Below are positions 1 through 57,457 of a DNA stretch of 64,000 nucleotides, piece by piece. Made by a program: the position numbers and the translations under genes. The notes beneath the pieces are model-generated. The model made no database searches. It had not been told where the DNA came from and saw only the letters and a list, made by a program, of their open reading frames with translations. Source of the stretch: Naegleria gruberi (lineage: Eukaryota); NCBI GenBank assembly GCA_000004985.1, contig GG738894.1; one strand, written 5' to 3'. The first letter of the stretch is position 1. Every line of letters starts with the position of its first letter.

Positions 1-3000
1 NNNNNNNNNNNNNNNNNNNNNNNNNNNNNNNNNNNNNNNNNNNNNNNNNNNNNNNNNNNNNNNNNNNNNNNNNNNNNNNNNNNNNNNNNNNNNNNNNNNN
101 NNNNNNNNNNNNNNNNNNNNNNNNNNNNNNNNNNNNNNNNNNNNNNNNNNNNNNNNNNNNNNNNNNNNNNNNNNNNNNNNNNNNNNNNNNNNNNNNNNNN
201 NNNNNNNNNNNNNNNNNNNNNNNNNNNNNNNNNNNNNNNNNNNNNNNNNNNNNNNNNNNNNNNNNNNNNNNNNNNNNNNNNNNNNNNNNNNNNNNNNNNN
301 NNNNNNNNNNNNNNNNNNNNNNNNNNNNNNNNNNNNNNNNNNNNNNNNNNNNNNNNNNNNNNNNNNNNNNNNNNNNNNNNNNNNNNNNNNNNNNNNNNNN
401 NNNNNNNNNNNNNNNNNNNNNNNNNNNNNNNNNNNNNNNNNNNNNNNNNNNNNNNNNNNNNNNNNNNNNNNNNNNNNNNNNNNNNNNNNNNNNNNNNNNN
501 NNNNNNNNNNNNNNNNNNNNNNNNNNNNNNNNNNNNNNNNNNNNNNNNNNNNNNNNNNNNNNNNNNNNNNNNNNNNNNNNNNNNNNNNNNNNNNNNNNNN
601 NNNNNNNNNNNNNNNNNNNNNNNNNNNNNNNNNNNNNNNNNNNNNNNNNNNNNNNNNNNNNNNNNNNNNNNNNNNNNNNNNNNNNNNNNNNNNNNNNNNN
701 NNNNNNNNNNNNNNNNNNNNNNNNNNNNNNNNNNNNNNNNNNNNNNNNNNNNNNNNNNNNNNNNNNNNNNNNNNNNNNNNNNNNNNNNNNNNNNNNNNNN
801 NNNNNNNNNNNNNNNNNNNNNNNNNNNNNNNNNNNNNNNNNNNNNNNNNNNNNNNNNNNNNNNNNNNNNNNNNNNNNNNNNNNNNNNNNNNNNNNNNNNN
901 NNNNNNNNNNNNNNNNNNNNNNNNNNNNNNNNNNNNNNNNNNNNNNNNNNNNNNNNNNNNNNNNNNNNNNNNNNNNNNNNNNNNNNNNNNNNNNNNNNNN
1001 NNNNNNNNNNNNNNNNNNNNNNNNNNNNNNNNNNNNNNNNNNNNNNNNNNNNNNNNNNNNNNNNNNNNNNNNNNNNNNNNNNNNNNNNNNNNNNNNNNNN
1101 NNNNNNNNNNNNNNNNNNNNNNNNNNNNNNNNNNNNNNNNNNNNNNNNNNNNNNNNNNNNNNNNNNNNNNNNNNNNNNNNNNNNNNNNNNNNNNNNNNNN
1201 NNNNNNNNNNNNNNNNNNNNNNNNNNNNNNNNNNNNNNNNNNNNNNNNNNNNNNNNNNNNNNNNNNNNNNNNNNNNNNNNNNNNNNNNNNNNNNNNNNNN
1301 NNNNNNNNNNNNNNNNNNNNNNNNNNNNNNNNNNNNNNNNNNNNNNNNNNNNNNNNNNNNNNNNNNNNNNNNNNNNNNNNNNNNNNNNNNNNNNNNNNNN
1401 NNNNNNNNNNNNNNNNNNNNNNNNNNNNNNNNNNNNNNNNNNNNNNNNNNNNNNNNNNNNNNNNNNNNNNNNNNNNNNNNNNNNNNNNNNNNNNNNNNNN
1501 NNNNNNNNNNNNNNNNNNNNNNNNNNNNNNNNNNNNNNNNNNNNNNNNNNNNNNNNNNNNNNNNNNNNNNNNNNNNNNNNNNNNNNNNNNNNNNNNNNNN
1601 NNNNNNNNNNNNNNNNNNNNNNNNNNNNNNNNNNNNNNNNNNNNNNNNNNNNNNNNNNNNNNNNNNNNNNNNNNNNNNNNNNNNNNNNNNNNNNNNNNNN
1701 NNNNNNNNNNNNNNNNNNNNNNNNNNNNNNNNNNNNNNNNNNNNNNNNNNNNNNNNNNNNNNNNNNNNNNNNNNNNNNNNNNNNNNNNNNNNNNNNNNNN
1801 NNNNNNNNNNNNNNNNNNNNNNNNNNNNNNNNNNNNNNNNNNNNNNNNNNNNNNNNNNNNNNNNNNNNNNNNNNNNNNNNNNNNNNNNNNNNNNNNNNNN
1901 NNNNNNNNNNNNNNNNNNNNNNNNNNNNNNNNNNNNNNNNNNNNNNNNNNNNNNNNNNNNNNNNNNNNNNNNNNNNNNNNNNNNNNNNNNNNNNNNNNNN
2001 NNNNNNNNNNNNNNNNNNNNNNNNNNNNNNNNNNNNNNNNNNNNNNNNNNNNNNNNNNNNNNNNNNNNNNNNNNNNNNNNNNNNNNNNNNNNNNNNNNNN
2101 NNNNNNNNNNNNNNNNNNNNNNNNNNNNNNNNNNNNNNNNNNNNNNNNNNNNNNNNNNNNNNNNNNNNNNNNNNNNNNNNNNNNNNNNNNNNNNNNNNNN
2201 NNNNNNNNNNNNNNNNNNNNNNNNNNNNNNNNNNNNNNNNNNNNNNNNNNNNNNNNNNNNNNNNNNNNNNNNNNNNNNNNNNNNNNNNNNNNNNNNNNNN
2301 NNNNNNNNNNNNNNNNNNNNNNNNNNNNNNNNNNNNNNNNNNNNNNNNNNNNNNNNNNNNNNNNNNNNNNNNNNNNNNNNNNNNNNNNNNNNNNNNNNNN
2401 NNNNNNNNNNNNNNNNNNNNNNNNNNNNNNNNNNNNNNNNNNNNNNNNNNNNNNNNNNNNNNNNNNNNNNNNNNNNNNNNNNNNNNNNNNNNNNNNNNNN
2501 NNNNNNNNNNNNNNNNNNNNNNNNNNNNNNNNNNNNNNNNNNNNNNNNNNNNNNNNNNNNNNNNNNNNNNNNNNNNNNNNNNNNNNNNNNNNNNNNNNNN
2601 NNNNNNNNNNNNNNNNNNNNNNNNNNNNNNNNNNNNNNNNNNNNNNNNNNNNNNNNNNNNNNNNNNNNNNNNNNNNNNNNNNNNNNNNNNNNNNNNNNNN
2701 NNNNNNNNNNNNNNNNNNNNNNNNNNNNNNNNNNNNNNNNNNNNNNNNNNNNNNNNNNNNNNNNNNNNNNNNNNNNNNNNNNNNNNNNNNNNNNNNNNNN
2801 NNNNNNNNNNNNNNNNNNNNNNNNNNNNNNNNNNNNNNNNNNNNNNNNNNNNNNNNNNNNNNNNNNNNNNNNNNNNNNNNNNNNNNNNNNNNNNNNNNNN
2901 NNNNNNNNNNNNNNNNNNNNNNNNNNNNNNNNNNNNNNNNNNNNNNNNNNNNNNNNNNNNNNNNNNNNNNNNNNNNNNNNNNNNNNNNNNNNNNNNNNNN

Positions 3001-6000
3001 NNNNNNNNNNNNNNNNNNNNNNNNNNNNNNNNNNNNNNNNNNNNNNNNNNNNNNNNNNNNNNNNNNNNNNNNNNNNNNNNNNNNNNNNNNNNNNNNNNNN
3101 NNNNNNNNNNNNNNNNNNNNNNNNNNNNNNNNNNNNNNNNNNNNNNNNNNNNNNNNNNNNNNNNNNNNNNNNNNNNNNNNNNNNNNNNNNNNNNNNNNNN
3201 NNNNNNNNNNNNNNNNNNNNNNNNNNNNNNNNNNNNNNNNNNNNNNNNNNNNNNNNNNNNNNNNNNNNNNNNNNNNNNNNNNNNNNNNNNNNNNNNNNNN
3301 NNNNNNNNNNNNNNNNNNNNNNNNNNNNNNNNNNNNNNNNNNNNNNNNNNNNNNNNNNNNNNNNNNNNNNNNNNNNNNNNNNNNNNNNNNNNNNNNNNNN
3401 NNNNNNNNNNNNNNNNNNNNNNNNNNNNNNNNNNNNNNNNNNNNNNNNNNNNNNNNNNNNNNNNNNNNNNNNNNNNNNNNNNNNNNNNNNNNNNNNNNNN
3501 NNNNNNNNNNNNNNNNNNNNNNNNNNNNNNNNNNNNNNNNNNNNNNNNNNNNNNNNNNNNNNNNNNNNNNNNNNNNNNNNNNNNNNNNNNNNNNNNNNNN
3601 NNNNNNNNNNNNNNNNNNNNNNNNNNNNNNNNNNNNNNNNNNNNNNNNNNNNNNNNNNNNNNNNNNNNNNNNNNNNNNNNNNNNNNNNNNNNNNNNNNNN
3701 NNNNNNNNNNNNNNNNNNNNNNNNNNNNNNNNNNNNNNNNNNNNNNNNNNNNNNNNNNNNNNNNNNNNNNNNNNNNNNNNNNNNNNNNNNNNNNNNNNNN
3801 NNNNNNNNNNNNNNNNNNNNNNNNNNNNNNNNNNNNNNNNNNNNNNNNNNNNNNNNNNNNNNNNNNNNNNNNNNNNNNNNNNNNNNNNNNNNNNNNNNNN
3901 NNNNNNNNNNNNNNNNNNNNNNNNNNNNNNNNNNNNNNNNNNNNNNNNNNNNNNNNNNNNNNNNNNNNNNNNNNNNNNNNNNNNNNNNNNNNNNNNNNNN
4001 NNNNNNNNNNNNNNNNNNNNNNNNNNNNNNNNNNNNNNNNNNNNNNNNNNNNNNNNNNNNNNNNNNNNNNNNNNNNNNNNNNNNNNNNNNNNNNNNNNNN
4101 NNNNNNNNNNNNNNNNNNNNNNNNNNNNNNNNNNNNNNNNNNNNNNNNNNNNNNNNNNNNNNNNNNNNNNNNNNNNNNNNNNNNNNNNNNNNNNNNNNNN
4201 NNNNNNNNNNNNNNNNNNNNNNNNNNNNNNNNNNNNNNNNNNNNNNNNNNNNNNNNNNNNNNNNNNNNNNNNNNNNNNNNNNNNNNNNNNNNNNNNNNNN
4301 NNNNNNNNNNNNNNNNNNNNNNNNNNNNNNNNNNNNNNNNNNNNNNNNNNNNNNNNNNNNNNNNNNNNNNNNNNNNNNNNNNNNNNNNNNNNNNNNNNNN
4401 NNNNNNNNNNNNNNNNNNNNNNNNNNNNNNNNNNNNNNNNNNNNNNNNNNNNNNNNNNNNNNNNNNNNNNNNNNNNNNNNNNNNNNNNNNNNNNNNNNNN
4501 NNNNNNNNNNNNNNNNNNNNNNNNNNNNNNNNNNNNNNNNNNNNNNNNNNNNNNNNNNNNNNNNNNNNNNNNNNNNNNNNNNNNNNNNNNNNNNNNNNNN
4601 NNNNNNNNNNNNNNNNNNNNNNNNNNNNNNNNNNNNNNNNNNNNNNNNNNNNNNNNNNNNNNNNNNNNNNNNNNNNNNNNNNNNNNNNNNNNNNNNNNNN
4701 NNNNNNNNNNNNNNNNNNNNNNNNNNNNNNNNNNNNNNNNNNNNNNNNNNNNNNNNNNNNNNNNNNNNNNNNNNNNNNNNNNNNNNNNNNNNNNNNNNNN
4801 NNNNNNNNNNNNNNNNNNNNNNNNNNNNNNNNNNNNNNNNNNNNNNNNNNNNNNNNNNNNNNNNNNNNNNNNNNNNNNNNNNNNNNNNNNNNNNNNNNNN
4901 NNNNNNNNNNNNNNNNNNNNNNNNNNNNNNNNNNNNNNNNNNNNNNNNNNNNNNNNNNNNNNNNNNNNNNNNNNNNNNNNNNNNNNNNNNNNNNNNNNNN
5001 NNNNNNNNNNNNNNNNNNNNNNNNNNNNNNNNNNNNNNNNNNNNNNNNNNNNNNNNNNNNNNNNNNNNNNNNNNNNNNNNNNNNNNNNNNNNNNNNNNNN
5101 NNNNNNNNNNNNNNNNNNNNNNNNNNNNNNNNNNNNNNNNNNNNNNNNNNNNNNNNNNNNNNNNNNNNNNNNNNNNNNNNNNNNNNNNNNNNNNNNNNNN
5201 NNNNNNNNNNNNNNNNNNNNNNNNNNNNNNNNNNNNNNNNNNNNNNNNNNNNNNNNNNNNNNNNNNNNNNNNNNNNNNNNNNNNNNNNNNNNNNNNNNNN
5301 NNNNNNNNNNNNNNNNNNNNNNNNNNNNNNNNNNNNNNNNNNNNNNNNNNNNNNNNNNNNNNNNNNNNNNNNNNNNNNNNNNNNNNNNNNNNNNNNNNNN
5401 NNNNNNNNNNNNNNNNNNNNNNNNNNNNNNNNNNNNNNNNNNNNNNNNNNNNNNNNNNNNNNNNNNNNNNNNNNNNNNNNNNNNNNNNNNNNNNNNNNNN
5501 NNNNNNNNNNNNNNNNNNNNNNNNNNNNNNNNNNNNNNNNNNNNNNNNNNNNNNNNNNNNNNNNNNNNNNNNNNNNNNNNNNNNNNNNNNNNNNNNNNNN
5601 NNNNNNNNNNNNNNNNNNNNNNNNNNNNNNNNNNNNNNNNNNNNNNNNNNNNNNNNNNNNNNNNNNNNNNNNNNNNNNNNNNNNNNNNNNNNNNNNNNNN
5701 NNNNNNNNNNNNNNNNNNNNNNNNNNNNNNNNNNNNNNNNNNNNNNNNNNNNNNNNNNNNNNNNNNNNNNNNNNNNNNNNNNNNNNNNNNNNNNNNNNNN
5801 NNNNNNNNNNNNNNNNNNNNNNNNNNNNNNNNNNNNNNNNNNNNNNNNNNNNNNNNNNNNNNNNNNNNNNNNNNNNNNNNNNNNNNNNNNNNNNNNNNNN
5901 NNNNNNNNNNNNNNNNNNNNNNNNNNNNNNNNNNNNNNNNNNNNNNNNNNNNNNNNNNNNNNNNNNNNNNNNNNNNNNNNNNNNNNNNNNNNNNNNNNNN

Positions 6001-9000
6001 NNNNNNNNNNNNNNNNNNNNNNNNNNNNNNNNNNNNNNNNNNNNNNNNNNNNNNNNNNNNNNNNNNNNNNNNNNNNNNNNNNNNNNNNNNNNNNNNNNNN
6101 NNNNNNNNNNNNNNNNNNNNNNNNNNNNNNNNNNNNNNNNNNNNNNNNNNNNNNNNNNNNNNNNNNNNNNNNNNNNNNNNNNNNNNNNNNNNNNNNNNNN
6201 NNNNNNNNNNNNNNNNNNNNNNNNNNNNNNNNNNNNNNNNNNNNNNNNNNNNNNNNNNNNNNNNNNNNNNNNNNNNNNNNNNNNNNNNNNNNNNNNNNNN
6301 NNNNNNNNNNNNNNNNNNNNNNNNNNNNNNNNNNNNNNNNNNNNNNNNNNNNNNNNNNNNNNNNNNNNNNNNNNNNNNNNNNNNNNNNNNNNNNNNNNNN
6401 NNNNNNNNNNNNNNNNNNNNNNNNNNNNNNNNNNNNNNNNNNNNNNNNNNNNNNNNNNNNNNNNNNNNNNNNNNNNNNNNNNNNNNNNNNNNNNNNNNNN
6501 NNNNNNNNNNNNNNNNNNNNNNNNNNNNNNNNNNNNNNNNNNNNNNNNNNNNNNNNNNNNNNNNNNNNNNNNNNNNNNNNNNNNNNNNNNNNNNNNNNNN
6601 NNNNNNNNNNNNNNNNNNNNNNNNNNNNNNNNNNNNNNNNNNNNNNNNNNNNNNNNNNNNNNNNNNNNNNNNNNNNNNNNNNNNNNNNNNNNNNNNNNNN
6701 NNNNNNNNNNNNNNNNNNNNNNNNNNNNNNNNNNNNNNNNNNNNNNNNNNNNNNNNNNNNNNNNNNNNNNNNNNNNNNNNNNNNNNNNNNNNNNNNNNNN
6801 NNNNNNNNNNNNNNNNNNNNNNNNNNNNNNNNNNNNNNNNNNNNNNNNNNNNNNNNNNNNNNNNNNNNNNNNNNNNNNNNNNNNNNNNNNNNNNNNNNNN
6901 NNNNNNNNNNNNNNNNNNNNNNNNNNNNNNNNNNNNNNNNNNNNNNNNNNNNNNNNNNNNNNNNNNNNNNNNNNNNNNNNNNNNNNNNNNNNNNNNNNNN
7001 NNNNNNNNNNNNNNNNNNNNNNNNNNNNNNNNNNNNNNNNNNNNNNNNNNNNNNNNNNNNNNNNNNNNNNNNNNNNNNNNNNNNNNNNNNNNNNNNNNNN
7101 NNNNNNNNNNNNNNNNNNNNNNNNNNNNNNNNNNNNNNNNNNNNNNNNNNNNNNNNNNNNNNNNNNNNNNNNNNNNNNNNNNNNNNNNNNNNNNNNNNNN
7201 NNNNNNNNNNNNNNNNNNNNNNNNNNNNNNNNNNNNNNNNNNNNNNNNNNNNNNNNNNNNNNNNNNNNNNNNNNNNNNNNNNNNNNNNNNNNNNNNNNNN
7301 NNNNNNNNNNNNNNNNNNNNNNNNNNNNNNNNNNNNNNNNNNNNNNNNNNNNNNNNNNNNNNNNNNNNNNNNNNNNNNNNNNNNNNNNNNNNNNNNNNNN
7401 NNNNNNNNNNNNNNNNNNNNNNNNNNNNNNNNNNNNNNNNNNNNNNNNNNNNNNNNNNNNNNNNNNNNNNNNNNNNNNNNNNNNNNNNNNNNNNNNNNNN
7501 NNNNNNNNNNNNNNNNNNNNNNNNNNNNNNNNNNNNNNNNNNNNNNNNNNNNNNNNNNNNNNNNNNNNNNNNNNNNNNNNNNNNNNNNNNNNNNNNNNNN
7601 NNNNNNNNNNNNNNNNNNNNNNNNNNNNNNNNNNNNNNNNNNNNNNNNNNNNNNNNNNNNNNNNNNNNNNNNNNNNNNNNNNNNNNNNNNNNNNNNNNNN
7701 NNNNNNNNNNNNNNNNNNNNNNNNNNNNNNNNNNNNNNNNNNNNNNNNNNNNNNNNNNNNNNNNNNNNNNNNNNNNNNNNNNNNNNNNNNNNNNNNNNNN
7801 NNNNNNNNNNNNNNNNNNNNNNNNNNNNNNNNNNNNNNNNNNNNNNNNNNNNNNNNNNNNNNNNNNNNNNNNNNNNNNNNNNNNNNNNNNNNNNNNNNNN
7901 NNNNNNNNNNNNNNNNNNNNNNNNNNNNNNNNNNNNNNNNNNNNNNNNNNNNNNNNNNNNNNNNNNNNNNNNNNNNNNNNNNNNNNNNNNNNNNNNNNNN
8001 NNNNNNNNNNNNNNNNNNNNNNNNNNNNNNNNNNNNNNNNNNNNNNNNNNNNNNNNNNNNNNNNNNNNNNNNNNNNNNNNNNNNNNNNNNNNNNNNNNNN
8101 NNNNNNNNNNNNNNNNNNNNNNNNNNNNNNNNNNNNNNNNNNNNNNNNNNNNNNNNNNNNNNNNNNNNNNNNNNNNNNNNNNNNNNNNNNNNNNNNNNNN
8201 NNNNNNNNNNNNNNNNNNNNNNNNNNNNNNNNNNNNNNNNNNNNNNNNNNNNNNNNNNNNNNNNNNNNNNNNNNNNNNNNNNNNNNNNNNNNNNNNNNNN
8301 NNNNNNNNNNNNNNNNNNNNNNNNNNNNNNNNNNNNNNNNNNNNNNNNNNNNNNNNNNNNNNNNNNNNNNNNNNNNNNNNNNNNNNNNNNNNNNNNNNNN
8401 NNNNNNNNNNNNNNNNNNNNNNNNNNNNNNNNNNNNNNNNNNNNNNNNNNNNNNNNNNNNNNNNNNNNNNNNNNNNNNNNNNNNNNNNNNNNNNNNNNNN
8501 NNNNNNNNNNNNNNNNNNNNNNNNNNNNNNNNNNNNNNNNNNNNNNNNNNNNNNNNNNNNNNNNNNNNNNNNNNNNNNNNNNNNNNNNNNNNNNNNNNNN
8601 NNNNNNNNNNNNNNNNNNNNNNNNNNNNNNNNNNNNNNNNNNNNNNNNNNNNNNNNNNNNNNNNNNNNNNNNNNNNNNNNNNNNNNNNNNNNNNNNNNNN
8701 NNNNNNNNNNNNNNNNNNNNNNNNNNNNNNNNNNNNNNNNNNNNNNNNNNNNNNNNNNNNNNNNNNNNNNNNNNNNNNNNNNNNNNNNNNNNNNNNNNNN
8801 NNNNNNNNNNNNNNNNNNNNNNNNNNNNNNNNNNNNNNNNNNNNNNNNNNNNNNNNNNNNNNNNNNNNNNNNNNNNNNNNNNNNNNNNNNNNNNNNNNNN
8901 NNNNNNNNNNNNNNNNNNNNNNNNNNNNNNNNNNNNNNNNNNNNNNNNNNNNNNNNNNNNNNNNNNNNNNNNNNNNNNNNNNNNNNNNNNNNNNNNNNNN

Positions 9001-9860
9001 NNNNNNNNNNNNNNNNNNNNNNNNNNNNNNNNNNNNNNNNNNNNNNNNNNNNNNNNNNNNNNNNNNNNNNNNNNNNNNNNNNNNNNNNNNNNNNNNNNNN
9101 NNNNNNNNNNNNNNNNNNNNNNNNNNNNNNNNNNNNNNNNNNNNNNNNNNNNNNNNNNNNNNNNNNNNNNNNNNNNNNNNNNNNNNNNNNNNNNNNNNNN
9201 NNNNNNNNNNNNNNNNNNNNNNNNNNNNNNNNNNNNNNNNNNNNNNNNNNNNNNNNNNNNNNNNNNNNNNNNNNNNNNNNNNNNNNNNNNNNNNNNNNNN
9301 NNNNNNNNNNNNNNNNNNNNNNNNNNNNNNNNNNNNNNNNNNNNNNNNNNNNNNNNNNNNNNNNNNNNNNNNNNNNNNNNNNNNNNNNNNNNNNNNNNNN
9401 NNNNNNNNNNNNNNNNNNNNNNNNNNNNNNNNNNNNNNNNNNNNNNNNNNNNNNNNNNNNNNNNNNNNNNNNNNNNNNNNNNNNNNNNNNNNNNNNNNNN
9501 NNNNNNNNNNNNNNNNNNNNNNNNNNNNNNNNNNNNNNNNNNNNNNNNNNNNNNNNNNNNNNNNNNNNNNNNNNNNNNNNNNNNNNNNNNNNNNNNNNNN
9601 NNNNNNNNNNNNNNNNNNNNNNNNNNNNNNNNNNNNNNNNNNNNNNNNNNNNNNNNNNNNNNNNNNNNNNNNNNNNNNNNNNNNNNNNNNNNNNNNNNNN
9701 NNNNNNNNNNNNNNNNNNNNNNNNNNNNNNNNNNNNNNNNNNNNNNNNNNNNNNNNNNNNNNNNNNNNNNNNNNNNNNNNNNNNNNNNNNNNNNNNNNNN
9801 NNNNNNNNNNNNNNNNNNNNNNNNNNNNNNNNNNNNNNNNNNNNNNNNNNNNNNNNNNNN
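1..9860. other. Assembly gap (run of N)
   Basis: Uninterrupted n characters from 1 to 9860; real sequence starts at 9861. Confidence 0.99.
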
Positions 9861-53969: not shown

Positions 53970-54512
53970 TTGACAAGCCTACCACAATTTCTTGATTCTG
54001 AATTCATCAAACTATTAATTAATTATAACATTGACTATCGTATTATTGAGCACATGCCTGAAGTTGTAAAAGTAACACCCATTACATCTGAATTTGTGAA
54101 GAAATGGCCACAAGCTTTTACTCTATACCCAGAATTTTATTCAGACGATGTACAATTCATTACAGATAGTAATGTTATGGCTATTGCATTTGCTCGTGAA
54201 CCAGTGCAACTGGAACACTTGGATTTAGTCGCTCAGGCAGGATTGACAACATTGCAGAAAAATTATACACAAAACTACTCACTGGTAAAAAGAGAGAGTG
54301 GGTAGTCTTTAGATGTGATTTTAATGTGTGCTGGTTCTCCTTTTGGAGGTCATTTGGCTGATCTTATTCCAGAACAAGTCTTGTTGGACAGGGATTTCTT
54401 AGTCAACCTTGTCAGGAGAAATGGCTTTGCTTACCAAATGATTCGAGAAATGACGATGGAAGAGGATGAAGATGAAGAATTAGCTATGGAAGCTTTGAAA
54501 TCTTGGGGCTGA
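53970..54512 (+). CDS. Hypothetical protein (two in-frame ORFs separated by a single TAG)
   Basis: ORFs 53970..54305 and 54315..54512 are in the same frame, separated by TAG at 54303-54305. No domain recognised. Confidence 0.3.
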
Positions 54513-54762: not shown

Positions 54763-56784
54763 ATGTCGCTATTCCTCACGCACTGTTTCCCTCATGCTAG
54801 CTCATGCACCGATCACTATGAATCCGATTCGGAATATGAATGTCGTGACGATCTATTCGATTTAAACAGATTCACACAACCAATTCACGTCGGATTGGAT
54901 TTAACAATCGAAGGTTCAAGAAAATTAGGACACTACCTATTGATCATCATGTGGAGGTTAATATTAAAAAGTCCCATGTTATTCCGAGTGAGAGATGAAG
55001 CGAAAGAACAAGTCAAATTGTTGGAGAAATTTTGTTGCCAGAGACACGAAGAGTTTGCTAGGGAGGTTTGTTGTTCGAATCATCATTTGTTTGAAGATTC
55101 GAGTGTGGAAGTGTTTGATGATATGCAGGTGTGGGCTTCCATGAGAGAAAGTGAAGAAAATGAGACACGGGAATACGAAGGAGAAAAGAGAATTAAATTA
55201 GATGCTGAATCCCTGTCAAAAGTTTATACACTTTCGAATTATTTTGCTACTATTGTTAAAAAATACATATTTGGAGAGTTGGCGAAACATGGCACTGCAG
55301 AGATTTACAAATTTATCACAAAGCAAAATAAGATTGCACTTACATTTAAAATTGAGGAGCTCAGAGATATGGTATTGAAATATTTCGAATATACTCCTTC
55401 AATGCTTCCATTGGAAGATCAGGATGTTAAATTATATTTTATTGGAATGACAGCCTTACTGGAATATTTGGCAGCTGAAATGATTGAATTGGGTGGAAAT
55501 GCCGCTAGAGATGCCCGTCAGGAATATATTACACCTTCTTGTTTTGAAATAGCCACTTCAGGAGATGCAGAATTGGAAAGGACGGTACTATTTCACATGA
55601 ACCATTTGCCTCTCGTTGATTTCAATTATTTTTATGGAGCCAATCAAACAGTATTACCTCCTATTGATGTGAATGAGAAAGCCAATAGTGGAGAGGAATT
55701 TAATTTTACTCAACTACCAACTGAATTACATAACACCATACTCAAAAATGTTTCTTCGTTGGAAGAACTTTTGGAAATGAGATTGGTTTGCAAACAATGG
55801 AACTATTTCATCATGAATGATAATGATATTTGGAAGAGTTTAATTTGTAACAATACGATTTCAGAAGATTTATTCAGGTTCTGTGATTCAACTTTTACTG
55901 TTGGTGAGTTGGAAACTATTTTGAGTAGAGGAAAAGATCTAAAACCTCTCCATTTTGGCCAACAAGTAATTAATCATTTCTATGAGAAGAATGATTGGAA
56001 GTCCCTATACTTTATTCTCGTACGAAGACATTTGACATTTATACGTGATTTGGATTTGATGAAATCAAGAGAATTTTTCGATGAATATTTCAATTACGAT
56101 TCTTCTGTAGAATCATATGACAACTCGAAAAAGAAACTGCAAATTGGAATTACAAAGGGTGTATTTGCGAATTTCAACTTTACAAAACACCTATCATCAC
56201 GTGTTTCGTCTAAGGTTTACATTCCTAAAGATGCTCTTTCAGAATTTTTGAAATTTGGAAATAATTATTCACTAGTTGGTGTGATTGACTTTTCAAAATT
56301 CTCCTCCTTCATTTCATGTCGTTTGTTCCCAAAAAATGGATTATTATATTGCTTTTATCACAAAATCAATCAAGCAGATTTTCTATTCTTTGAGAATTAT
56401 TCTCTTGAATCTGAACAATTAATTGAATTTGAAATCAAAGACAAAAGCTTTGAATTTCCTCAACCAATTAATCCATACCAAGTCTACCATGAACAAATTA
56501 TTGTCAATCAACCTTCATGTTGTCCACTCTTTTACTTGCAGCAAGCACAAGGTCATCGTTCAGGTTGCAATCTAGCCCCAAGCGTTCTATTTAACAATAA
56601 TGAAGACAAACCTGAAACAATGATTCAATCCTACCTCAGAGAGGATGACGAGGATAATATAGTACTGCTATCAGACACCTTGGAGGAATCAGAAGATACT
56701 TTTTCTATTTACATTTCAAGAGAGGATTTAATCTTAAGAAAGTTTGAGAATGCAAAAATTGAATATGTGAAACCAAACTACTAG
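54763..56784 (+). CDS. F-box protein with N-terminal histone H2B-like + H2A-like fold doublet
   Basis: 673-aa intronless ORF. Residues ~195-290 (KIALTFKIEELRDMVLKY...KLYFIGMTALLEYLAAEMIELGGNAARDARQEYITPSCFEIATSGDAELERTVL) align with the histone H2A core (LQFPVGRVHRLLRK...[50 protein letters not shown]). Immediately upstream, RKLGHYLLIIMWRLILKSP...KRIKLDAESLSKVYTLSNYFATIVKKYIFGELAKHGTAEIYKF resembles H2B (RKESYSVYVYKVLKQVHP...[37 protein letters not shown]), including an exact GELAKH. The F-box follows (LPTELHNTILKNVSSLEELLEMRLVCKQWNYFIMNDNDIW), then ~300 aa of unassigned sequence. Confidence 0.7.
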   Translation: MSLFLTHCFPHASSCTDHYESDSEYECRDDLFDLNRFTQPIHVGLDLTIEGSRKLGHYLLIIMWRLILKSPMLFRVRDEAKEQVKLLEKFCCQRHEEFAREVCCSNHHLFEDSSVEVFDDMQVWASMRESEENETREYEGEKRIKLDAESLSKVYTLSNYFATIVKKYIFGELAKHGTAEIYKFITKQNKIALTFKIEELRDMVLKYFEYTPSMLPLEDQDVKLYFIGMTALLEYLAAEMIELGGNAARDARQEYITPSCFEIATSGDAELERTVLFHMNHLPLVDFNYFYGANQTVLPPIDVNEKANSGEEFNFTQLPTELHNTILKNVSSLEELLEMRLVCKQWNYFIMNDNDIWKSLICNNTISEDLFRFCDSTFTVGELETILSRGKDLKPLHFGQQVINHFYEKNDWKSLYFILVRRHLTFIRDLDLMKSREFFDEYFNYDSSVESYDNSKKKLQIGITKGVFANFNFTKHLSSRVSSKVYIPKDALSEFLKFGNNYSLVGVIDFSKFSSFISCRLFPKNGLLYCFYHKINQADFLFFENYSLESEQLIEFEIKDKSFEFPQPINPYQVYHEQIIVNQPSCCPLFYLQQAQGHRSGCNLAPSVLFNNNEDKPETMIQSYLREDDEDNIVLLSDTLEESEDTFSIYISREDLILRKFENAKIEYVKPNY

Positions 56785-57061: not shown

Positions 57062-57457
57062 CTACAAATCTTCGTCTTCAAATTGTGGAGGTTTGTGATG
57101 ATCTGGATTAACATTTCCAAACGAAGATGAAGAACTACCTCCTCTATTTCCACTTCCATAACCTCCAAATGGTCCAATGGTAGGATAAACTGGATCAAAT
57201 CGAGAACCTGGTAACATCTGAGGAGGTTTCATATCTCCTCCTCCCATTGAAGAAGCAGAAGGAAAATTCGAACGATCATTGAAAATTGGATTATTTGGTC
57301 CAACTTGATTGCCACCAAATCCACCACTCATTGAGGAAGGAGCATTTCCATGTAAAGGTTGAAAACAAGGCAATGGATTTAAATCTTGATCTCCTACTCT
57401 TCTATTATTATTCATCATCATGTTGTTACTATTATTGTTAAAATTATTGTTATTCAT
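57062..57457 (-). CDS. PI31 (proteasome inhibitor) C-terminal-domain-like Gly/Pro-rich protein
   Basis: 131-aa ORF. GSRFDPVYPTIGPFGG...NVNPDHHKPPQFEDEDL parallels the PI31 C-terminus (ARFDPFGPIG...NPDHLPPPGYDDMYL). The N-terminus is poly-Asn. No PI31 N-terminal FP domain is found in the ORF or the 200 nt upstream. Confidence 0.45.
   Translation of the reverse strand: MNNNNFNNNSNNMMMNNNRRVGDQDLNPLPCFQPLHGNAPSSMSGGFGGNQVGPNNPIFNDRSNFPSASSMGGGDMKPPQMLPGSRFDPVYPTIGPFGGYGSGNRGGSSSSSFGNVNPDHHKPPQFEDEDL

Follow-up and report, generated by a model that had tools for sequence, protein, structure and literature searches.

An F-box protein of Naegleria gruberi with a predicted acidic H2B-like/H2A-like double histone fold

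Double histone folds (DHFs) are already known from the cellular proteins SOS, ABTB2/Cca3, SPT3 and HSIH-DHF (PMC13088155), and fused H2B-H2A folds as such are not unique to the protein described here. In animals, ABTB2/BPOZ-2 (Cca3) and ABTB3/BTBD11 carry an N-terminal DHF in which an H2B-like fold precedes an H2A-like fold, with low identity to histones, and the BTB/POZ domain of ABTB2 is reported to bind Cul3 (PMC13088155; PMC4962582). The histone domain of SOS1 (PDB 1q9c) is a single-chain H2A/H2B-like pseudodimer in a multidomain non-chromatin protein, lacks DNA-binding electrostatics and comes from a family found in Animalia plus Capsaspora (PMC13088155). The H2B-H2A doublets of Marseilleviridae (e.g. 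Melbournevirus, PDB 7n8n and 9cvt) are basic, bind DNA and build the nucleosome-like particles on which packaging depends (PMC8357426). The DHF table of a 2026 review lists archaeal/bacterial doublets, SOS, ABTB2, SPT3 and the animal HSIH-DHF, with no entry from Discoba and none combined with an F-box (PMC13088155).

Here a cellular H2B-H2A fusion is described from the window, the 64,000-nucleotide stretch of N. gruberi contig GG738894.1 (assembly GCA_000004985.1) that was analysed. The ORF list of the window contains a single unbroken ORF of 673 aa at 54763..56784 on the + strand, whose product is 97–98% identical, collinearly and over its full length, to N. gruberi NAEGRDRAFT_69196 (P0001), a reference protein sequenced independently of the window. 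The annotation of NAEGRDRAFT_69196 reads F-box protein and nothing more, and a literature search with the locus tags returned no match. The genes around the ORF are all cellular (EF2, LRR, PI31, trypsin, G-alpha and RCC1), and the base composition of the window is uniform at ~35% GC. A viral island was considered for this stretch and rejected on the neighbouring genes. The gene is real, intact and restricted to the Naegleria and Willaertia lineage (Heterolobosea), and its product very probably combines an N-terminal H2B-like/H2A-like DHF with a central canonical F-box and a C-terminal YwqG/DUF1963 (TYPP) domain, laid out as follows:

54763..56784, + strand: CDS complete in one exon, 673 aa and a stop codon; orthologous to N. 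gruberi NAEGRDRAFT_69196
54763..54849, + strand: N-terminal segment, residues 1-29; poorly conserved, acidic, without a lysine-rich tail; pLDDT <50 at residues 14-27; 36% aa identity to the metagenomic copy L001
54850..54996, + strand: H2B-like alpha1-L1-alpha2, residues ~30-78; very divergent, placed by MAFFT with the alpha1-alpha2 of natural doublets, by hhalign and by a weak collinear PDB profile piece; dN/dS 0.18
54997..55182, + strand: family-specific insert between H2B alpha2 and L2, residues ~79-140; conserved helix (78-102), then an acidic low-confidence stretch; charge ~-10; dN/dS 0.21
55183..55332, + strand: H2B-like L2-alpha3-alphaC, residues ~141-190, from phmmer against PDB and hhalign; invariant K142-R143-x-K145 and GELAKH (171-176)
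55333..55605, + strand: H2A-like fold (alpha1, L1, alpha2, L2, alpha3, alphaC), residues ~191-281, from tblastn and PDB matches; E234, E239, E242, D268 and E270 kept
55606..55707, + strand: conserved linker, residues 282-315, HLPLVDFNYFYG...LPP; family invariants D286, G292 and P299; low pLDDT
55708..55845, + strand: F-box, residues 316-361; PF12937 30.9 bits (cut-off 24.3), PF00646 24.8 bits (cut-off 20.5)
55846..56139, + strand: conserved helical stretch downstream of the F-box, residues ~362-459, from the family alignment; model helices at pLDDT 40-65
56140..56781, + strand: beta-rich domain resembling YwqG/DUF1963 (TYPP), residues ~460-673; degenerate in the window copy

The histone-like region was recovered by searches with single sequences as well as with profiles. 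In tblastn against the window, human H2A gave E 3.9e-10 at nt 55447-55581 and the alphaC of human H2B gave E 0.036 at 55234-55323. The best PDB matches in phmmer were engineered single-chain H2B-H2A and H2B-H2A.Z chimeras (PDB 2jss, 4m6b, 6w4l and others; E 2.7e-9, residues 153-274), collinear over both folds, with PDB H2A chains alone at E ~2e-7; a family profile against PDB gave E 5.4e-17 in three collinear pieces, with H2A chains at ~1e-12. Natural H2B-H2A doublets, of which there were many among the database matches, were aligned by hhalign from H2B alpha1 to H2A alphaC with a probability of 99.55% and E 2.4e-23. These collinear matches over both folds bear out the H2B to H2A order on one chain given in the initial annotation, and the existence of the engineered chimeras means that this order is structurally viable with a short linker. 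The motifs on which that annotation had relied are all present, GELAKH at residues 171-176, the LTFKIEEL lead-in at 192-199 and the H2A-like LLEYLAAEMIELGGNAARD at 232-250, the last identical at 14/18 positions to the canonical H2A stretch on direct reading. Its remark that a lysine-rich histone tail is missing was also correct, the N-terminal segment being acidic and without basic tails. What it had described as short low-complexity insertions proves to be a single insert of ~62 aa (residues ~79-140), conserved and helical in part, together with a small one before alpha3. The ~62-aa insert occurs in all F-box family members and is absent from the 25 other H2B-H2A doublets of the alignment; in the stand-alone doublet P0016, which is mis-aligned there, it is visible by eye only.

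The degree of resemblance to histones differed along the doublet. The H2A alpha2-alphaC core shared 38% identity with human H2A and up to 46% with canonical H2A, while the H2B-like alpha1-alpha2 shared only 8% with human H2B; identity was 17–25% to eukaryotic H2B/H2A chimeras and 10–15% to viral doublets. In Pfam, neither Histone (PF00125) nor Histone_H2A_C matched the protein at a limit of E ≤10, and five family members were likewise without a match at E ≤1. The PF00125 search proposed in the initial annotation was thus negative, yet histone homology was supported by PDB sequence matches, profile-profile alignment and fold, and given the strength of that evidence the missing match was not taken as a refutation; since Pfam Histone gives no match here, that search used as a test would have led to the doublet being wrongly dismissed. 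Chance similarity was rejected on conservation and dN/dS.

Both folds of the expected handshake pair were modelled by AlphaFold (AF2) at pLDDT 77-94, with H2B-like helices at residues 35-41 and 49-68 (pLDDT 82-90) and at 157-168 and 171-185 (pLDDT 77-91), and H2A-like helices at 197-205, 222-250, 258-267 and 269-281 (pLDDT 83-94). Foldseek comparison of the model with single-chain H2B-H2A and SOS gave TMt values of 0.65-0.80. In this confident model the predicted histone pseudodimer, two helix-strand-helix folds in a handshake on one chain, holds, although the model is not fully independent evidence because its input alignment already held histone doublets; a single-sequence AF2 run on residues 1-376 was unusable (pLDDT 36). 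The F-box and the inter-domain regions were of low confidence in the AF2 model.

Downstream of the doublet, Pfam placed an F-box at residues 316-361 (nt 55708-55845), in agreement with the ~55700-55850 initially annotated, and the domain was also found by Pfam in the N. gruberi paralogue and in Willaertia. It has the canonical motif LPxE..I...L....L...R.VCK.W, and from this we infer assembly with Skp1 and Cul1-Rbx1, so that recruitment of Skp1-Cul1 would make the protein an SCF substrate receptor. The substrate-binding domain of F-box proteins normally lies C-terminal to the F-box. In the Naegleria protein this place is taken by a YwqG/DUF1963-like domain of the TYPP superfamily, to which PDCD2/Tsr4 and YwqG also belong; F-box proteins that have recruited bacterial-type protein-binding domains are comparable. 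The initial annotation had overlooked this domain. The Pfam DUF1963 match was sub-threshold in the window copy (13.6 bits, E 0.087, cut-off 23) and above the cut-off in the relatives P0008 (35.9 bits, full profile), P0009 (34.2) and P0155 (33.5). The moderately confident model (pLDDT 60-84 in structured blocks, <50 at residues 560-627) showed a two-repeat all-beta fold like that of YwqG (1pv5; Foldseek E 0.078, probability 0.92). The TYPP superfamily, predicted to be a chaperone-like protein-interaction module, is marked by a GGxP motif and a conserved Gln (PMC4275035); no GG.P motif occurs in the window protein, and P0008 carries GGNP. A chaperone role dedicated to ribosomal protein uS5 has been described for PDCD2 (PMC7736825). 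Fusion of TYPP domains to an F-box or a histone fold is not mentioned in the papers that were covered.

The family comprises the N. gruberi paralogue NAEGRDRAFT_69753 (40% identity to the window protein), three proteins of Willaertia magna and two copies from metagenomes; its members are 646-679 aa long and share one order of modules. The paralogue and the Willaertia members came from an exhaustive representative search, word-indexed homologue searches having gone no further than the orthologue, the metagenomic copy with the split ORF and a small number of doublets. Three pattern scans for further family loci, two of them over JGI metagenomes and the third over IMG/VR, confirmed no relative. 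Against the metagenomic copy L001, dN/dS was 0.26 overall, 0.28 over the doublet and <0.5 in every module; paralogues and both genera share the architecture, which is under purifying selection. The L001 ORF is split inside its GNAARD motif by a 1-nt deletion (frameshift). This deletion falls where the metagenome assembly is briefly rich in G and A, and it may have arisen in assembly. P0016 is a homologous doublet of 224 aa with the same insert and no F-box downstream; since it stands alone, the doublet module can function without the other domains.

The surface of the doublet departs from that of histones. Its net charge is -19 and its pI 5.0, whereas each human histone fold has a charge of +6. 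In the residue map, most H2A DNA-contact residues are replaced (R29->E, R32->D, R35->L, R42->Q, K75->Q, T76->E and R77->Y), R77 being Y, F, C or V in every family member, and the doublet has probably lost DNA binding, as far as its residues indicate. Because most basic DNA-contact residues and the basic tails are missing and the charge is negative, it ought not to be classed with the histone variants. One DNA-contact site could be retained at H2B L2, where hhalign aligned KRIKL to KKVTL and the K-R-x-K (142-145) is invariant in the family. The acidic patch is kept at 7/8 positions in the window copy and at most positions family-wide, H2A E56/E61/E64/D90/E91/E92 and H2B E105/E113 corresponding to E234/E239/E242/D268/A269/E270 and E172/E180, respectively. 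D268 and E172 are shared by all members that align at these two positions. Position 270 is E throughout the F-box members, and position 239 (equivalent to H2A E61) is E except in the reference strain, which has D; the equivalents of the arginine-anchor triad (E239/D268/E270) are among the residues kept. Variation was seen at E64, replaced by Q in Willaertia, at E91 and at H2B E113. Invariant columns were enriched at patch positions (4/8 vs 23/243, Fisher p 0.006). Acidic-patch residues are among the best conserved in all H2A/H2B, so that their retention could in part reflect structural inertia.

These properties bear on the relation of the doublet to chromatin. The basic surface of H2A-H2B is what nucleosome incorporation and most H2A-H2B chaperones use, and with a charge of -19, a pI of 5.0 and most DNA-contact residues lost, the docking onto nucleosomes or histone chaperones initially suggested for the protein is disfavoured. 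It is very improbable that the doublet is a chromatin histone variant replacing an H2A-H2B dimer in nucleosomes or hexasomes, as the Marseilleviridae doublets do, and so tethering SCF to chromatin. The 38% identity of its H2A alpha2-alphaC core to human H2A and the alignment of the invariant K-R-x-K with H2B L2 would fit such a role, but the acidic charge and the absence of basic tails, the replacement of minor-groove and backbone contacts (R77->Y/F/C/V in all members, R29->E, R32->D, R35->L, T76->E) and the ~62-aa acidic insert at the H2B alpha2/L2 junction, which in the nucleosome structure adjoins the H2B-H4 four-helix-bundle region, all argue against it, as does the unrelated conserved linker (282-315) found where H2A has its docking domain and C-terminal tail. 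The origin of the gene could also be sought outside the cell. Giant viruses of amoebae encode F-box proteins too, and in the search in which viral doublets matched the AF2 model one Klosneuvirus F-box protein gave a weak match; natural H2B-H2A fusions are moreover typical of giant viruses (PMC11222145, PMC9145170). Endogenisation of a doublet from nucleocytoviricota, with the locus as a viral relic, is nonetheless improbable in view of the ordinary cellular neighbours and uniform ~35% GC, the lack of an IMG/VR relative in the pattern scan and an identity to viral doublets below that to eukaryotic chimeras and to the canonical H2A core, although an ancient transfer is possible. The Marseilleviridae doublets share the order of folds with the Naegleria doublet, which differs from them in being acidic, in having lost key Arg contacts, in its fusion to an F-box and a TYPP domain and in its cellular neighbourhood; from the engineered chimeras, laboratory constructs of canonical basic histones, it differs as a natural, divergent and acidic protein with a large insert.

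The chance that the ORF is an artefact or in decay, whether a chimera of separate histone and F-box genes produced by mis-assembly or by the gene model, or a functionless pseudogene, is close to negligible. The split L001 ORF and the degenerate TYPP domain of the Naegleria copies could be read in this way, but the 673 codons are unbroken and collinear with the independently sequenced reference protein, the module order is repeated in the 40%-identical paralogue and three Willaertia proteins, and dN/dS stays <0.5 in every module. A chimeric gene model was rejected on conservation and dN/dS. A possible, if unlikely, alternative is that the doublet packs in cis, against the F-box linker or the pocket of the TYPP domain for example, and controls whether substrate or Skp1 binds, in the manner of the autoinhibition of the Ras exchange factor by the SOS histone domain. 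SOS offers a documented cytosolic DHF which makes intramolecular contacts and lacks nucleic-acid-binding electrostatics (PMC13088155), and the Naegleria doublet is likewise acidic; it is, however, clearly similar to H2A and H2B in sequence, with no sequence-level similarity to SOS1 (12–18% identity in structural alignments), whose partner domains are DH-PH-REM-Cdc25. A cis role sits less well with P0016, where the doublet and its insert exist without an F-box, and with the arginine-anchor triad, whose invariance in F-box members, bar E239->D in the reference strain, points to a basic ligand from outside the protein.

The reading preferred here, that the DHF is a non-DNA-binding interaction module of an SCF receptor, is a reasonably probable one on the residues retained and lost. 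The DHF would no longer wrap DNA or enter nucleosomes and would offer a protein-protein interaction surface instead, whether, most likely, by mimicking the nucleosome acidic patch and capturing arginine-anchor or basic partners or, alternatively, as an SOS-like regulatory module. Since the acidic-patch residues are kept, the doublet is a possible bait for acidic-patch binders, and an acidic-patch decoy as the specific mechanism is put forward tentatively. The TYPP domain, C-terminal to the F-box, would probably bind an extended, possibly basic, substrate peptide. A fuller scheme, in which the doublet would be a soluble DNA-free decoy within an E3, capturing off-chromatin arginine-anchor or basic proteins for SCF ubiquitylation, with the TYPP domain as a second basic-peptide site, is more speculative; if it holds, animal ABTB2, with its doublet and BTB/Cul3, would be a convergent answer to the same decoy task.

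ABTB2 is, by description, the closest architectural and probably mechanistic analogue, its DHF also being joined to a domain that connects with a cullin-RING ligase. The adaptor is a BTB domain in ABTB2 and an F-box (Cul1/Skp1 type) in the Naegleria protein, which has no ankyrin repeats or BTB/POZ by Pfam and carries a YwqG/TYPP domain and the ~62-aa family insert in place of the ABTB2 arrangement of doublet, ANK and BTB; DNA-binding potential has been reported for the ABTB2 doublet, whereas the Naegleria doublet is acidic. As the lineage is Heterolobosea and not animals, the fusion is almost certainly independent of ABTB2. The family represents a second H2B-H2A pseudodimer on a cullin-RING adaptor, after ABTB2 with BTB/Cul3, and this recurrence hints at a selectable function for a histone-dimer mimic joined to an E3. 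An acidic-patch-keeping, DNA-contact-poor doublet in a putative ubiquitin-ligase adaptor is, judged from its sequence, a combination not described before, and with its DNA contacts apparently lost and its patch kept it could serve as a natural reagent for probing acidic-patch recognition. Because Pfam Histone misses the Naegleria domain, more repurposed histone folds may be hidden. The family adds a cellular H2B to H2A fusion in a deep-branching eukaryote, most likely independent of the others.

The gene lies among ORFs for EF-2, an LRR protein, a PI31 C-terminal domain, a trypsin-like protease, a G-alpha subunit and an RCC1-repeat protein, in a window with a GC content of ~35% outside a run of N (bases 1-9860; padding or an assembly gap). 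A viral island at this locus was ruled out, the neighbouring ORFs being ordinary cellular proteins. The gene and its immediate neighbours are as follows.

53970-54512, + strand: two short ORFs (111 aa and 65 aa), just upstream
54763..56784, + strand: histone-doublet F-box ORF (673 aa, from the ORF list)
57062-57457, - strand: ORF with a PI31 C-terminal domain (PF08577, E 1.4e-14), directly downstream

The upstream pair may be a single intron-split gene; no Pfam match at E<=0.01 was found for the 111-aa ORF. Mammalian PI31 pairs with the F-box protein Fbxo7, and the position of a PI31 gene beside an F-box gene may well be coincidence.

The window protein shared 97-98% identity over its full length with N. 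gruberi NAEGRDRAFT_69196 (P0001, the NEG-M reference-strain orthologue), with indels at residues 98-104 (EEFAREVCCSNHH vs EEF-REV-CSNHH) and 440-446 (FFDEYFNYD vs FFD-VFQLD). The window is accordingly a nuclear scaffold of N. gruberi type, and these differences, with E239 against D in the reference, mean that its source is another N. gruberi strain or another assembly. The gene is already in public databases, as a “hypothetical protein” (NCBI) or “F-box domain-containing protein” (UniProt), and both the histone doublet and the C-terminal TYPP domain are missing from the database annotation consulted. The Pfam Histone model, a check proposed in the initial annotation, matched neither the window protein nor any relative, and this blindness to the doublet is why public annotation shows the F-box only. 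Taken alone, that search would have dismissed the doublet falsely, since the other sequence evidence for histone folds was strong.

All motifs quoted in the initial annotation were found where it had placed them, including GELAKH (residues 171-176), LLEYLAAEMIELGGNAARD (residues 232-250) and the F-box (residues 316-361, nt 55708-55845; Pfam F-box-like, 30.9 bits vs a cut-off of 24.3). Histone similarity beyond chance was borne out by tblastn, PDB sequence, profile and profile-profile matches. In tblastn, human H2A matched nt 55447-55581 (E 3.9e-10) and the H2B α3-αC segment nt 55234-55323 (E 0.036). With the whole protein as query, the top PDB sequence hits were laboratory single-chain H2B-H2A(.Z) chimeras, collinear over residues 153-274 (E 2.7e-9), and a five-member family profile improved this value to E 5.4e-17 in three collinear pieces corresponding to H2B α1-α2 (weak), H2B α3-αC and H2A α2-αC. 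Profile-profile alignment (hhalign) with 23 natural H2B-H2A doublets gave 99.55% probability (E 2.4e-23) over 163 columns, from H2B α1 to H2A αC.

AlphaFold gave a pLDDT of 36 with the single sequence; with an alignment of 35 sequences (family members and natural doublets), pLDDT values were 82-90 at residues 30-100 and 77-94 at residues 150-270, so that confident histone folds were obtained in both halves. Model helices spanned residues 35-41, 49-68, 157-168 and 171-185 in the H2B-like half and 197-205, 222-250, 258-267 and 269-281 in the H2A-like half. Foldseek target-normalised TM-scores against single-chain H2B-H2A and SOS were 0.65-0.80, and further structural comparisons are listed below. 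The H2B α1-α2 segment shared only 8% identity with human H2B; its assignment is supported, short of independent proof, as the model's alignment already paired it with doublet α1-α2.

Structural comparisons of the doublet model (target; score; fit)
H2A-H2B moiety of 8uqe; 16.4; 2.3 Å over 166 aa
SOS histone domain, 1q9c; 16.2; 1.9 Å over 153 aa
Melbournevirus H2B-H2A doublet; 14.7; 3.9 Å over 177 aa
Melbournevirus “mini” doublet; 13.5; 2.5 Å over 158 aa

The family was collected by exhaustive HMMER search over 1.84 billion cluster representatives with cluster look-up. Besides the orthologue, members comprised an N. gruberi paralogue (NAEGRDRAFT_69753, 40% identical), three Willaertia magna proteins, a 646-aa JGI metagenomic protein and a copy 65% identical to the window protein (L001; ENA metagenome contig ERZ929261 k127_510267). 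Full-length members were 646-679 aa long with identical module order. L001 was called as two genes (241 aa and 420 aa) owing to a 1-nt deletion in its H2A-like fold, inside the GNAARD motif (771-774), reflecting either an assembly error or recent inactivation. Between the window copy and L001, dN/dS (Nei-Gojobori) was 0.26 overall, with dS ~0.9 and hence near saturation, and 0.18-0.46 per module, the doublet included. No additional family loci emerged when IMG/VR and JGI metagenome contigs were scanned by pattern; within the reach of these searches, every named member is heterolobosean (Naegleria, Willaertia). A stand-alone acidic H2B-like/H2A-like doublet of 224 aa (P0016; L002 6001-6675, ENA contig ERZ27315067 k141_397194) carries the α2 sequence of the Naegleria family and, by eye, the start of its insert (the multiple alignment misplaces this sequence); its contig is eukaryotic, with adjoining intron-split G-alpha and Ras genes, and no F-box was found downstream of it on the contig. 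Other natural histone fusions came from Logan/ENA data: two proteins of 335-346 aa (P0005, P0006) in which H2A precedes H2B and the N-terminus is extended by a long acidic segment, and a 449-aa H2B-H2A-H3-like triplet (P0156).

The insert, conserved over ~62 aa (residues ~79-140) between H2B α2 and L2, consists of a conserved helix (78-102) and an acidic low-confidence stretch; it was present in all F-box family members and missing from the other doublets of the alignment. At its end, K142-R143-x-K145 (nt 55186-55197) is invariant (KRIK in the window, KRVK or KRKI/KRKV in relatives), pairs with the H2B L2 “KR” in hhalign and also fits a monopartite NLS consensus; a remnant of DNA contact and an NLS-like motif are both possible readings. 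In its C-terminal third the protein has a YwqG/DUF1963-like domain (TYPP superfamily): the Pfam model DUF1963 was above threshold in three relatives (P0008, 35.9 bits, profile positions 1-211 of 216; Willaertia P0009 and P0155, ~34 bits) and sub-threshold in the window copy (13.6 bits). TYPP is a predicted protein-protein-interaction, chaperone-like domain, with its YwqG family recorded from “a small group of eukaryotes” (Burroughs and Aravind, PMC4275035); the GGxP motif described there is lacking in the window copy and is GGNP in P0008.

The doublet region had a net charge of -19 and a pI of 5.0, with relatives alike, vs +6 for each human H2A and H2B fold, tails not counted. When human H2B-H2A was placed on the family alignment, DNA contacts were mostly replaced (H2A R29→E, R32→D, R35→L, R42→Q, K75→Q, T76→E and R77→Y, the last being F, C or V in relatives; H2B K85→S and T88→Y), and an unrelated conserved linker stood in place of the H2A docking domain. 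The acidic patch was kept, H2A E56, E61, E64, D90 and E92 corresponding to E234, E239, E242, D268 and E270, and H2B E105 and E113 to E172 and E180. Equivalents of the arginine-anchor triad E61/D90/E92 were invariant in the five-sequence alignment. Exceptions in the patch are E61 (window residue 239; D in the NEG-M reference protein), E64 (Q in Willaertia) and the variable positions E91 and H2B E113. Invariant columns were enriched at patch positions (4/8 vs 23/243, Fisher p 0.006). A role as a nucleosomal histone is unlikely because the doublet is acidic, tail-less and devoid of the minor-groove arginines, a large insert adjoins the H2B α2/α3 region and the docking domain has been replaced.

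Viral H2B-H2A doublets, DNA-packaging histones as described in PMC8357426, share order and fold with the Naegleria doublet but only 10-15% identity in structural alignments, vs 17-25% for eukaryotic H2B/H2A. In a 2026 review on double histone folds (PMC13088155), the cellular families are archaeal/bacterial doublets, SOS, ABTB2/Cca3, SPT3 and animal HSIH-DHF; Discoba and F-box-fused doublets are absent from the families tabulated, and the doublet, F-box and TYPP architecture was not found in the literature searched. The closest architectural analogue is ABTB2/BPOZ-2, in which an H2B-like/H2A-like doublet is joined to ankyrin repeats and a BTB domain for which Cul3 binding has been reported (PMC4962582). 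The same “histone-dimer mimic plus cullin adaptor” logic is thus built from different parts, and the Naegleria fusion is therefore almost certainly independent.

The initial annotation was confirmed as an observation, and its interpretation, an SCF adaptor mimicking an H2A-H2B dimer, was supported in part only. For the loss of DNA-binding electrostatics by a doublet, the nearest precedent is SOS. Modules, conservation and surface pattern are documented here; the mechanism is a speculative proposal, in its most economical form that the doublet serves as a protein-interaction module, with the TYPP domain, C-terminal to the F-box, as the other candidate substrate-binding site. The F-box would recruit Skp1-Cul1, as is established behaviour for F-box proteins. 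As an interaction module, the doublet may either imitate the nucleosome acidic patch in soluble form, capturing arginine-anchor or basic partners that would then undergo SCF-dependent ubiquitylation, or serve as an SOS-like intramolecular regulator; that P0016 exists as a stand-alone homologue speaks for autonomous binding.
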